Source of the DNA: a virus
Virus record (IMG/VR): IMGVR_UViG_3300042566_001051
Location: 1-64,000 of that record
Reading direction: 5' to 3' (one strand)
Length of the DNA stretch: 64,000 bases
In this document: positions 8,596 through 12,273 of the stretch, piece by piece
Layout: the number at the start of each line of letters is the position of its first letter
How positions within the stretch are numbered: position 1 is the stretch's first letter
The notes under the pieces: generated by a model
What the model was told of the DNA's origin: nothing
What the model saw: the letters and a program-made list of their open reading frames with translations, nothing else
Database searches by the model: none
Translations under genes and position numbers: made by a program

Positions 8596-9501
8596 TTACG
8601 CCTTCATGAAAGTATCGAGTTGCGAGAACGACATCTGCACCTCCTGTAGTCCGTCCTCGCGGCGAGAAAGGCTGAATTCCAGATTCGCCGGACGGAATAA
8701 CCCGATGTCCTCGTATCCTCCGCGATTGCTGCCTCTGGTGATGAACGCATGCACGACCTTGATCGTGACGGCGTAGCTCGCCGGAACGCCGACAGTTCCG
8801 TCCCTTGCTGCTGCGGCCCCGTGGTGTGCAGCAAACCACTTCTTCAGGAAACCTGACTGGTCGTCCATCGTGGTCAGGCGCAACTCAACCGGCTCGTTTC
8901 CCTGTACGGAATCGACGACAGCCCCGCCAACCTTGCGCTTCTCGCCGGAAACGGTGAATGGGGCGTACTCAACATCGGTGGCGAACAAATTGAACCGCTG
9001 CGATACATCTCCTTGCAGCTTGCTCGATACCTCGATCAGGAATAGGTTTTTCTTGGCGAGGCGCTGCCCGCGCATGTCGTCATAGATACGCCGCGCCTCG
9101 GTCGGGCTGATGCCGCCAAAAAGCGGGGTAGAGGCGCCCCAGTACATGGTCTGCGATGCGACGCCGCTCATTCCTGGAAATAGGTTGTTCAGCATGCCGG
9201 AATCCAGAATGCGCATTCCGGCGCCCTCCCAGTTTCCATTCATGATGTCGCCAACGGCGCCGGCACCAACATTGAGCGCCCGCTGCGCTTGGATTGGGAT
9301 GTGCTTATTGACGAGGTTCATGGCGGCATTCGTCGCCATGTTTGCCCCCATGCCAGCAACCGTAGCCGCCAGCTTGCCGCCGCCAAAAGCATTGGCCGCC
9401 TTGGCCGCAACGCCGCCGACGGAGGAACTGATTCCCGAACTGATGGAGCCCATCAAGCCATTGCTGGACAGGCTTGCAGCCACGTTATTGTACAAACTCA
9501 A
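8596..9501 (-). CDS. Tail tube-like/baseplate tube-initiator protein
   Basis: C-terminal tube-like pattern (LFATDVEY...ELRLTTMDD...QEVQMSFSQ); probable TTG start overlapping the HNH stop. Confidence 0.5.
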   Translation of the reverse strand: MSLYNNVAASLSSNGLMGSISSGISSSVGGVAAKAANAFGGGKLAATVAGMGANMATNAAMNLVNKHIPIQAQRALNVGAGAVGDIMNGNWEGAGMRILDSGMLNNLFPGMSGVASQTMYWGASTPLFGGISPTEARRIYDDMRGQRLAKKNLFLIEVSSKLQGDVSQRFNLFATDVEYAPFTVSGEKRKVGGAVVDSVQGNEPVELRLTTMDDQSGFLKKWFAAHHGAAAARDGTVGVPASYAVTIKVVHAFITRGSNRGGYEDIGLFRPANLEFSLSRREDGLQEVQMSFSQLDTFMKA

Positions 9502-9937
9502 AGCAGCCTCCCATTCTCGGCGGCCCATCGCTCAGGCGGTTTTGCACCCTTCCTCAAATTGCACGTCGGGCAGAGTAGTTGCAGATTGGCCTTGTCGTTC
9601 GATCCGCCAAGCACCAGCGGCTGGATATGATCGACGTGGTAGCCATCGGCGATGCTGACGCGGCAGCAGGCGCACTTGCCGCGCTGAAGCCGGAATAGCC
9701 GCTTGATGTCGGCTGCCGTGTGCTTGCCGCCGACGCGCTTCTTCATGGCAAGTCGATTGTAGAAACTAGCCCTTCTGGCCTCTGGATTTGCTTTCGCCCA
9801 AGCAGAGGCCCTGGCATTGGTTGCCAGCTTCACCTCTGGCCGACTGTGGTATGCAAGAACCTTGGCGGCATTCTCTGGCTTCGCTCTCCATCGATTGCCG
9901 CGAGCAGCGTAGGCATCGCGGTTTCGCTTGAAATATC

Positions 9938-10477
9938 GGCTATTCGTAAAAGCATGTGGAAACCTGCCGCCCAGTGGCGGCAGGTTGCGTGTGGAATCGT
10001 TCAAACCGGAACCCATTGCTCAGGGTTGATGCCAGGATTTGTCCAGCCAACCACCACGCCATCTGCGCCGACCTTGAAGATGATGTAGTCGCCGTAACCG
10101 TTATCACCGACGCACAGGAGGTCGTCAGGGACGTAATAGCCCTTCCATTTGGCGATGCGCTTCTTGGCCTCATCCAGAAGCCAGTATTCGCCGGCATCGC
10201 ATACCTTGTAGTGAATGTCAGCTTCAATGCCTTCAGGCCAATTCATGATGCGGCCCGTAGCCAGTTCGATAACCGGCTCCCACGAGGTTCCTTTTCGGCA
10301 CGGAATCAGCGTTCCGTCGCTGTCTTCCTTGCCATTTACGGTGGCGTCTTCCCAATAGCGAATGTCCGCGCCAACCTCGATGAATTTAGCTTGTTCCACG
10401 TCAATCCTTTCCACACACTTTTGCGTTTTCTGGTTGTTGCTTGGATGGGTCAGTTCCACACCGTTTTACGAATAGCC
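9938..10477. mobile_element. Non-autonomous insertion cassette (MITE/MIC-like) with one passenger gene
   Basis: Perfect 14-bp TIR GGCTATTCGTAAAA (21/24 when extended); 8-bp direct repeat GAAATATC at 9930-9937 and 10478-10485; no transposase. Confidence 0.9.
10001..10399 (-). CDS. Passenger gene, phage-type hypothetical protein (132 aa)
   Basis: AAAGGA RBS before the GTG at 10399; motifs RYWEDATVNG, IHYKVCDAG, GYGDYII. Confidence 0.8.
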   Translation of the reverse strand: MEQAKFIEVGADIRYWEDATVNGKEDSDGTLIPCRKGTSWEPVIELATGRIMNWPEGIEADIHYKVCDAGEYWLLDEAKKRIAKWKGYYVPDDLLCVGDNGYGDYIIFKVGADGVVVGWTNPGINPEQWVPV

Positions 10478-10710
10478 GAAATATCCAGCCATGTGGGCGG
10501 CGTGGTGCGCCTTGTTTTCTGGCCTGGAGTAATACTCTGCCGCATAGGCTGCCGCCTTTTCCTTGGCCTCCTTGCCGCTCCGCCTGGCTTTGTTGTACTC
10601 AGACCAGCAATCTCGGCAACTGCTGCGGAGGCCGTCTTTCTTGGCCGCATCCTTGCTAAATTCAGAGCAATCCTTTTCAGCCCCGCATTTCGAGCATATT
10701 TTCAGCATGG

Positions 10711-12273
10711 CTATTCACCCCCGAAGCCGCCGCCGTCCTGTGGAGGCTTGGCATCCACGATGGTAGCGAACAGCTTTGCCTGATCCTCGTCGAGCATCAT
10801 GGTCTTGGTCAGGAACTCGCTCATGATTTCCTTGCTGGCGCCCATTTCCTTCATCATCTGCATGGACTGCACCAGCAGCATGCCGGCATTCATTGAGTCG
10901 GCACGCGTGCGCTGTTTTTCTGACTCAAGGGCTGAAATTGAGCCGAAGAAGTTGATAACCCAAGGGCGCTCTGTCGGGCTGAACACCACGCCGTAGCGGC
11001 GCATGGTGTGGATGTCGATCACATGATTGAAGAACTCTGACAGCGCAACGCGAATGATGCGCGCCCGCTCCGCAGCCTGAGCGGAAACCCGGAAGAATCC
11101 GCCCTCTCCCAGGCCGCCGGAAAGCTGGTCAGCGAAACCAAGCATTGAAAGATCGACGCCGATGGCGCCAGACAGTAGGCGGGCATGGAGCATCACATCC
11201 TCAATCGTGATACTTCCAGCGCGGCCAGACTGCCCGCCATTCGATGGGCCGATATTGGTCAGTTGCTTTTCGTTGAAAACCGGAATGATGTGGCGGATAC
11301 GCTCCATGACCGGGCGCCCGCTCTTTACGGCCTCTTCGGCGTGCGACTTTGACGCCTTGAGCATGTCCTTGACGGACTCCACAAACCGCTCTTGCTGCTC
11401 CAGGGTCATGGACTCAAGATTGACGGCTACCATCTGCTCATCAATCGAATCCATCCAGCGCTGCCCGACAAGTCCAAGTAGTGATGCGGTCAGGTTGTCG
11501 TAGGCTTCCTCGGCGTTGTACAGCAGCGATCCGCCGGCCATGCTCGGCATGACAGGCAGGCCGTCAATATCGTCCTCGGTGATGGCCAGTCGCAGTGACT
11601 TTTCCACCACGCCATGCTGCGGAACCCACTGGGTACGCGGCATCTTCATGCGCGCAAGCTGCGACACGTCAAGGCGCTCGAAATTGCGCTCACCGGTGTA
11701 GATGGCGTAGCCGACCGTGCGACTCCCGCGCTCGAATGGCTGCACCAGCGGAGGCCGCACCATTTCATCGGCGTAAAGGTCGATCACGCCGCGCGAGTCG
11801 GCATAAATTCTGGCGTAGGCATCACCGAACACTGCCCCCGTGTAGGCGATCTGGAAGGCTACGCGGTTGAATAGCGGCGTCAGATCGGCCGCAACTTCCT
11901 CGGCGATGGTAGAAAGCTGCTTGTTCTTTTTGGCGTCCGGGGTCTTTTCGACAAAAACAAGGTCGCCGTTCGTCTCGTGGCCTCCCAGGGCCGAAGTTAC
12001 CAACAGCAGCAAGGCCGTTGAAACAATCGGGTCGGACTCCATTGTCGACCACTTGTCGTAGATAATCTGTCGAGACCTGGCCGACCGCTTGCCTGTTCCC
12101 AGTAGGGAGGCGACGGTAGTGCTTCCGGCGCCATACAGGAATGTGTCGGATTGGTCGATCTGGTTTGCCGGGCCAAGAAATGACGATGCCCAGCGGCGCG
12201 CCGTCATGCCGAAGCGAGAGAAAATCCCGGCGGATTTGGTTGGAACCTTGATCGGTGCGTTGGAAATGGACAT
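10711..12273 (-). CDS. Portal protein (P1 Prt-like)
   Basis: 520 aa; IYDKWSTMESDPIVSTAL, FGDAYARIY and GGLGEGGFFRVS motifs. Confidence 0.8.
   Translation of the reverse strand: MSISNAPIKVPTKSAGIFSRFGMTARRWASSFLGPANQIDQSDTFLYGAGSTTVASLLGTGKRSARSRQIIYDKWSTMESDPIVSTALLLLVTSALGGHETNGDLVFVEKTPDAKKNKQLSTIAEEVAADLTPLFNRVAFQIAYTGAVFGDAYARIYADSRGVIDLYADEMVRPPLVQPFERGSRTVGYAIYTGERNFERLDVSQLARMKMPRTQWVPQHGVVEKSLRLAITEDDIDGLPVMPSMAGGSLLYNAEEAYDNLTASLLGLVGQRWMDSIDEQMVAVNLESMTLEQQERFVESVKDMLKASKSHAEEAVKSGRPVMERIRHIIPVFNEKQLTNIGPSNGGQSGRAGSITIEDVMLHARLLSGAIGVDLSMLGFADQLSGGLGEGGFFRVSAQAAERARIIRVALSEFFNHVIDIHTMRRYGVVFSPTERPWVINFFGSISALESEKQRTRADSMNAGMLLVQSMQMMKEMGASKEIMSEFLTKTMMLDEDQAKLFATIVDAKPPQDGGGFGGE

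Follow-up and report, generated by a model that had tools for sequence, protein, structure and literature searches.

A 540-bp element at positions 9938–10477 of a viral DNA of 64,000 nucleotides (positions 1 to 64,000 of the IMG/VR virus record IMGVR_UViG_3300042566_001051; this whole stretch is referred to hereafter as the window) is very probably a non-autonomous derivative of an ISL3-family insertion sequence (IS) of the ISRso21-like clade, inserted by an ISL3 transposase supplied in trans, that is, a mobile insertion cassette. It consists of IS ends around a gene that does not encode a transposase, carries no transposase of its own and is flanked by a target duplication. The gene that it carries is a phage gene, and the gene that it interrupts, in an uncultured temperate phage, encodes an HNH endonuclease-like protein.

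Anatomy of the cassette and its insertion site

All genes of this region are on the minus strand. The cassette is bounded by a left and a right inverted repeat (IRL and IRR), and its parts and those of the interrupted gene are as follows.

9938–10477, minus strand: transposase-less ISL3-type cassette (mobile insertion cassette), 540 bp, with the minus-strand order IRL, passenger, IRR
9930–9937: left copy of the 8-bp target duplication GAAATATC, found by direct reading and with a repeat finder
10478–10485: right copy of the 8-bp target duplication GAAATATC, found in the same two ways
9938–9996, plus strand: IRR module, with GGCTATTCGTAAAAGCATGTGGAA as its terminal 24 bp and another TGTGGAA lying 35 bp inward (element positions 18 and 53)
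10409–10477, minus strand: IRL module, with the terminal 24 bp and a second CGCAAAAGTGTGTGGAA 45 bp inward (element positions 18 and 63)
9961–9986: perfect 11-bp GC-rich hairpin between both IRR sites, 15 nt 3' of the passenger stop codon
10001–10396, minus strand: passenger gene, 131 amino acids, starting at a GTG that lies 5 nt beyond AAGGA; homologues begin at the same N-terminal position
10486–10708, minus strand: 5' part of the split HNH gene, its first 74 codons, matched by PHROG endonuclease families at E = 1e-11
9498–9929, minus strand: 3' remainder of the interrupted HNH gene, which spans 143 codons and contains the HNH motif (Pfam HNH, E = 3.7e-12; phrog_1035, E = 4.7e-19)

The inverted ends read GGCTATTCGTAAAA at 9938–9951 and its reverse complement at 10464–10477, a match that is perfect over 14 bp and holds at 21 of 24 positions when extended to 24 bp. 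Chance is an unlikely source of these ends, because the 14-mer GGCTATTCGTAAAA is expected only 0.13 times in the window even at two or fewer mismatches and two perfect, inverted copies were observed. The paired sites lie at 9955 and 9990 (TGTGGAA) and at 10409 and 10454 (TTCCACA). The two-site IRL of 69 bp ends in a ribosome-binding site, its inner site continuing into the AAGGA of the passenger; on the other side the passenger stop codon is 4 nt from the inner site of the two-site IRR (59 bp), with no transposase remnant between them. A folding energy of −22 kcal/mol (z = −2.8) was calculated for the hairpin, which may serve as a terminator; a simple terminator scan did not call it as one, and a scan of positions 9400–10900 found no sigma-70-like promoter. 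A preliminary description of this DNA, made from its letters alone, had listed terminal repeats perfect over 14 bp (21/24 extended), an 8-bp duplication, TGTGGAA pairs and an 11-bp hairpin, all of which were present by direct reading and with the repeat finder, as was its single gene with a ribosome-binding site of its own, here one open reading frame (ORF) of 131 amino acids.

Full-length elements and family assignment

An exact search with the end pattern GGCTATTCGYAAAANNNTGTGGAA identified three viral, eight genome and 11 metagenome contigs. The same ends bound elements of 1.9–2.3 kb in Dechloromonas, Accumulibacter and other genomes, and the principal loci (designated by L numbers) were:

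L096: full-length element, 2260 bp, in a metagenome-assembled Dechloromonas genome (G001)
L110: full-length element, 1945 bp
L093: full-length element, 2087 bp
L091: partial copy, Allochromatium
L007: partial copy, viral contig

The elements L093, L096 (L088/L096) and L110 encode proteins of 454–471 amino acids that match DDE_Tnp_ISL3 (PF01610) at E = 1e-56 to 1e-64, and also Zn_ribbon_ISL3 (PF14690) and HTH_Tnp_ISL3 (PF13542). Because elements with the same ends encode ISL3 transposases, with DDE_Tnp_ISL3 matches at E = 1e-54 to 1e-64, we assign the cassette, on sequence grounds, to the ISL3 family as a putative non-autonomous derivative. Members of this family produce 8-bp duplications, and their terminal inverted repeats, of about 20–40 bp, start with GGCT (consensus GGCTCTT in the ISfinder tables). 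Those of the window cassette read GGCTATTCGTAAAA...TGTGGAA and those of ISRso21 from the megaplasmid of Ralstonia solanacearum, the closest named element (52% transposase identity), read GGCTCTACGG..., both starting with GGCT. A relative of ISRso21 on the Ralstonia insidiosa plasmid pB1903 is flanked by a perfect 8-bp duplication, CTATCTTC.

The full-length elements share the layout IRL, one passenger gene, transposase, IRR. Their passenger gene begins within about 20 nt of the inner IRL site and is followed by the transposase gene, which overlaps it; the passenger of the window cassette sits exactly where theirs does. Accumulibacter 66-26 has four such ends; three or more of these coincide with contig breaks, which fits an insertion sequence present in multiple copies. 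A collection of plasmids contained no DNA match to the element. Matches to the end pattern at L089 and L092 appear to lie within ordinary coding frames and were discarded as chance hits, and an apparent solo end at L094 was likewise rejected.

For comparison of the two kinds of end, all ends were oriented with the outer base first. An IRL with TGTGGAA at positions 18 and 63 was present in the window, L006, L105, nine loci with window-type ends and two ISRso21-type copies. An IRR with TGT(G/A/T)GAA at 18 and TGTGGAA at 53 was present in the window, L006, L105 and the full-length elements L096, L110, L093, L099 and L101. Site spacing (18/63 as opposed to 18/53) therefore identifies the right end of the element in the window as IRL and its left end as IRR, and the site positions are the same in the cassette and in the autonomous elements. 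What lies between the two IRR sites differs: in the full-length elements the spacer consists of the last transposase codons, with the inner TTCCACA read as F-H-T, whereas in the cassette the hairpin takes the place of these codons.

A conserved C-terminal extension, CxxC ... CxxC(H/Y)xRFHT, was noted in the transposases at L093:186–1550, L096:314–1726, L110:93–1508, L100:1801–3222 and L101:1801–3249. One of the transposases with this extension matches Pfam HNH at E = 1.3e-4; since the catalytic-type HH pair is not conserved, the extension of these ISRso21-like transposases could be a DNA-binding tail of the zinc-ribbon type.

Sister cassettes

Five further transposase-less elements with these ends were identified, 262–559 bp in size and each with a perfect 8-bp duplication (TGTATTTC, GTAATAAC, GATATTCC, ACAAGATC and GCTCTTTA). 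Each comprises little beyond IRL, one ORF and IRR:

L005: 351 bp, ORF of 86 amino acids, phrog_28528
L006: 559 bp, ORF of about 145 amino acids without a family match
L105: 559 bp, ORF of about 145 amino acids without a family match
L111: 525 bp, ORF of 152 amino acids with a weak Pfam Mom match (E = 2.8e-4)
L112: 262 bp, acidic ORF of 67 amino acids

Both the autonomous partners and the occurrence of the same ends around other passengers, which the preliminary description had suggested looking for, were thus found, as full-length ISL3 elements and as these sister cassettes. L005 and L006 are on viral contigs, and L105, L111 and L112 have neighbouring ORFs of phage families (a ParA-like partition protein family, an HNH endonuclease family and phrog_210). 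All target 8-mers are AT-rich and lie within flanks of 55–65% G+C. No similarity could be detected between the Mom-like passenger of L111 and the 151-aa passenger shared by L110 and L091. L006 and L105 are 80% identical across all 559 bp and occupy different sites with different duplications (GTAATAAC and GATATTCC), which identifies them as diverged copies of one cassette at two sites; with its own duplication at each site, the pair indicates that cassettes of this type move as cassettes.

The pair bears on how the element in the window arose. Entry of a full-length, passenger-carrying ISL3 element into the HNH gene, followed by loss of the transposase in place, so that the cassette never moved as such, would agree with the shared layout in which the passenger directly follows IRL, and with the finding of no second copy of the exact cassette, but it is unlikely: the IRR spacer is a hairpin instead of the C-terminal transposase codons of the full-length elements, which disfavours a simple deletion in place, no transposase remnant is present in the 4 nt between the passenger stop codon and the inner IRR site, the L006/L105 cassette is found at two sites with separate duplications, and the passenger family is absent from the full-length elements found. 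We therefore favour insertion of the cassette as such.

Several less complete structures were also seen. The viral contig with L007 (3504–4600) carries an IRL, an apparently frameshifted C5 cytosine methyltransferase gene and an ISL3 transposase gene that is cut short after about 75 codons; the 13.6 kb examined showed no second end, and L007 is a decaying full-length element inside a virus. At L102:1–1957 and L107:107–2350 a single end of the same type precedes several small ORFs, and neither a transposase nor a second end lies within reach; both loci could be solo ends or larger elements with a cargo of several genes. A 43-bp structure at L103:2363–2405 has one 24-bp end against a partial inverted end (GGCTATTCGTAAAAATGTGTGGAAATTGAGTTTGCGAATAGCC) and no matching 8-bp duplication, and may be a deletion remnant or footprint.

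The insertion sites of the window (9930–9937), L105 (348–355) and L103 (2354–2362) hold AATATC or GATATT (GAAATATC, GATATTCC and flank AGATATTCG, respectively), hexamers loosely similar to the element's own tip, GAATAGCC. In this small sample of three sites there may be a target preference beyond AT-richness.

The interrupted HNH gene and its empty allele

As found, the 5' portion of the HNH gene is an ORF of 80 amino acids (10466–10708) that runs through the duplication into the end of the element and stops at 10466, and the 3' portion is the last 143 codons of an ORF of 172 amino acids (9498–10016). Removal of 9938–10485 in silico yields an ORF of 220 amino acids (...HMAGYF|KRNRD...), which aligns end to end with intact HNH proteins of 258 amino acids (residues 2–220 against 1–258, E = 3e-65); intact relatives reach 67% identity. 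The scripted deletion and the full-length alignment confirm the preliminary description on this point, that precise removal restores a 220-aa HNH frame. Two further genes, given for context, flank the HNH gene:

10711–12273, minus strand: portal gene, directly upstream of the HNH gene (phrog_1497, E = 8e-159)
8596–9528, minus strand: tail-tube-like late gene, downstream (phrog_24337)

An empty site was sought by placing contigs of four wastewater metagenome runs from four studies on the window. In all four runs contigs join 9929 to 10478. The 548 bp skipped at this joint equal the length of the element (540 bp) and of a single duplication copy (8 bp), the eight letters fitting on either side, and the empty-site contigs contain a single copy of GAAATATC. 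Those listed, 470–589 bp long and from three of the runs, have 0–3 mismatches to the window. Since they join exactly at 9929/10478 with so few mismatches, the insertion is real, precise and recent. An exact search for the empty-site junction in viral contigs gave no match. The preliminary description would have failed had no other element shared these ends and had no uninterrupted allele existed; other elements do share them, and the empty HNH allele that it had proposed to look for is present in wastewater. Its further view, of a recent insertion in the sense orientation, is likewise supported, the target being the HNH gene that lies next downstream of the portal gene.

The wastewater runs also contain HNH-less alleles, in which 9480 or 9492 is joined to 10711 and the whole HNH ORF is gone. 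At these joints 20 or 8 replacement letters were seen, which restore the ATGA-coupled start MSLYNN... of the next gene. Near-identical wastewater phages without the HNH ORF, together with the empty and filled HNH alleles, therefore show that at least three alleles are in circulation: no HNH, intact HNH, and HNH with the cassette. In two related prophages, too, the tube-like gene comes straight after the portal gene, without HNH. Because related phages either have or lack the gene at one fixed locus, the target is plausibly a free-standing, dispensable HNH gene of the homing-endonuclease type. Of the earlier label 'homing endonuclease', the HNH motif and the presence or absence at the locus hold; homing itself is plausible.

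A chimera or another artefact of metagenome assembly, to which the occurrence of the filled allele only in the probable source sample might point, is very unlikely. An 8-bp duplication and inverted ends that are both perfect, together with HNH halves that are in frame, would not result from a chimera; 100% of the sampled words recur in another assembly of the run (Logan contigs), and five other cassettes have the same anatomy.

The passenger gene

The passenger belongs to a conserved and widespread family of phage accessory proteins. Viral contigs contain 83 relatives with up to 72% identity, 80 of whose loci were kept for a scan for cassette ends; the ends were absent from all 80, apart from one chance-level match with two mismatches. 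In the phage collection only the coding region of the passenger was matched, at 71–73% identity and in Pseudomonas phages, where the homologues lie in plain early-gene arrays without these ends. Carriage of one phage gene, as first proposed from the letters, is supported by these data. In wastewater runs positions 10044–10391 were covered by short pieces with loose ends on both sides, which were rejected as copies of the cassette and attributed to passenger homologues of other organisms.

That the passenger is the sole ORF of the element and that no function could be assigned to it might suggest a novel small transposase, and hence an autonomous element, an idea already put forward for the small ORF in the mycobacteriophage mobile elements discussed below. 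This is highly improbable, given that at least 80 viral relatives, and those in Pseudomonas phages, reside in ordinary gene arrays without the ends, that other cassettes with the same ends carry unrelated ORFs, and that the same ends belong to elements encoding a bona fide ISL3 transposase. The passenger is better regarded as cargo.

The structure prediction that the preliminary description had recommended gave an AlphaFold2 model with a mean predicted local distance difference test (pLDDT) score of 93.9, mostly beta. No counterpart was found in the Protein Data Bank (PDB) by Foldseek, by a VIA all-against-all comparison (best Z = 2.6) or by a profile search of PDB sequences; a library of predicted viral structures returned only uncharacterised phage proteins, and PHROGs and PADLOC gave no match. 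The C-terminal half resembles SMI1_KNR4/SUKH-1 (PF09346) at E = 0.0017–0.0024 and 19 bits, below the cut-off of 25.4, and this sub-threshold match was obtained for only 4 of 39 family members. A protein atlas pointed, with a score of 0.92, to Knr4/Smi1 and SUKH-3 clusters, and a link to Knr4/Smi1–SUKH proteins is treated as a lead only. Invariant residues of the family include E16, D17, N21, W39, W53, K64, D67 and the motif G102-D103-Y104. Our best guess, held with low confidence, is that the protein binds or inhibits a host protein.

Mobilisation and host

No ISL3 transposase is encoded in the 75-kb virus record, which is estimated to be about 85% complete. Because the record lacks one, the cassette was presumably mobilised in trans, which agrees with the first reading of this DNA as a transposase-less, trans-mobilised vehicle with inverted repeats and a target duplication. 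That reading had named IS1595, IS1 and IS6 as candidate families, which also make 8-bp duplications; mobilisation by a transposase of one of these can be given almost no credence, since every full-length element with these ends encodes an ISL3 transposase, no transposase of another family was found inside them, and the two-site end architecture matches that of ISRso21.

Most likely, a full-length copy in the host would have provided, in trans, the cognate DDE transposase of the ISL3 family, which would have bound the TGTGGAA-containing sites and inserted the cassette. The target would have been an AT-rich 8-mer in the dispensable HNH gene between the portal and tail genes, where insertion would duplicate GAAATATC. 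In the simplest scenario this probably happened during the prophage stage, in a lysogen with an autonomous copy. ISL3 members have been reported to form circular intermediates and are presumed to follow a copy-out-paste-in route (bioRxiv 10.1101/2023.06.07.543989), and the cassette may have taken the same route. After insertion the passenger would be expressed from the late operon.

The host was probably a member of the bacterial family to which the Dechloromonas genome G001 belongs, a genome that carries a full-length element. Portal proteins like that of the window (72–80% identity) were found in prophages of 3 of the 301 genomes sampled from this family, and a fourth had 57% identity; these portal-related prophages hint at the host range of the window phage. 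Near-identical phage sequence is common in wastewater. In two prophages of the family (L113, G247:C1:851116–855588, and L114, G150:C7:1209–5762), whose portal proteins are 78–80% identical, the next late gene follows directly after the portal gene.

Several observations weigh against the proposal of a trans-mobilised ISL3 cassette. With the record at about 85% completeness, a transposase could sit in the missing 15%. The host has been placed in the family of the Dechloromonas genome by inference. We found no full-length element carrying this passenger and no second copy of the window's own cassette; the filled allele was seen only in one lake-water run, probably the source of the record; and the full-length elements L096, L110 and L093 are without clean target duplications.

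Cargo and wider significance

The passengers of the full-length and partial elements are varied. L007 carries the C5 cytosine methyltransferase gene, apparently frameshifted, and the Ralstonia copies carry S-adenosylmethionine-dependent or site-specific (N6) DNA methyltransferases; L096 carries a PAPS-reductase/SspD-like protein (phrog_424, E = 2e-43; PADLOC SspD, E = 9.5e-8), and L091 and L110 a 151-aa protein of phrog_24928. This is suggestive of a bias of the clade towards DNA-modification genes and makes the clade worth checking as a vehicle of counter-defence genes.

A more speculative proposal, which we consider possible but rather doubtful, is that the ISRso21-like clade of ISL3 is a dedicated single-gene cargo shuttle between bacteria and phages. 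If so, a fixed IRL, ending in a ribosome-binding site, and a fixed IRR would surround one interchangeable ORF, with or without a transposase. Such a shuttle would carry phage accessory genes, among them those for DNA modification and anti-restriction. In function it would parallel integron cassettes, with a DDE transposase as the driving enzyme, and it could inactivate rival selfish genes, for example homing endonucleases.

Phage genomes, being compact and limited in size, rarely contain insertion sequences or miniature derivatives of them. A literature search, incomplete and without coverage of ISfinder, found no description of ISL3-derived cassettes in phages. The mechanism is conventional and single-gene cassettes in phages are little documented; what is unusual is the residence in a phage, the cargo of a phage gene and the nesting in a homing-type gene, which gives three nested selfish layers (cassette in homing-type HNH gene in phage). 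In the present case a natural recent insertion has been caught beside its empty allele, the parent family can be named and a family of one-gene cassettes has been found. This offers a testable route by which single accessory genes might pass between phages and hosts without homologous recombination, and it draws attention to a widespread phage protein with a confidently predicted fold and no solved counterpart.

Comparison with known systems

ISPpu12 is an ISL3-family element with extra genes, autonomous and with its passengers elsewhere in the element; unlike the element in the window, it is not a transposase-less cassette with a single ORF. The mycobacteriophage mobile elements MPME1 and MPME2, said to have been described by Sampson et al. 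in 2009, are reportedly of about 440 bp with short inverted repeats and one small ORF, a suspected transposase, and are said to be present or absent between close relatives. To our knowledge, neither an autonomous partner nor a classical 8-bp duplication has been identified for them. The window cassette resembles them as a tiny phage-borne element with short inverted repeats and a single small ORF, but differs in that its partner family is identified and its ORF is an ordinary phage gene.

ISRso21 and ISRso21-like elements are similar to the window-type elements in the 8-bp duplication, in the repeats starting with GGCT and in the placement of TGTGGAA at 18/63 in IRL and 18/53 in IRR, and ISRso21 has the layout of IRL, one passenger, transposase and IRR that is seen in the window-type full-length elements. 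It differs in the terminal 14 bp (GGCTCTACGGAATA as against GGCTATTCGTAAAA in the window) and in being autonomous with a methyltransferase as cargo, whereas the element in the window lacks a transposase and carries a phage gene of no assigned function.

Among mobile insertion cassettes, MIC231 (from IS231 of Bacillus cereus) and the qnrD cassettes of Proteeae (Guillard et al., 2014, as cited in PMC9229222) are the examples to which the window element was compared. As in these, repeats of IS type surround one or a few non-transposase genes, a target duplication is present and mobilisation in trans is presumed; in the window, however, the parent is an ISL3 element, a phage genome serves as carrier and a phage gene as cargo, and the subterminal second sites have been kept.

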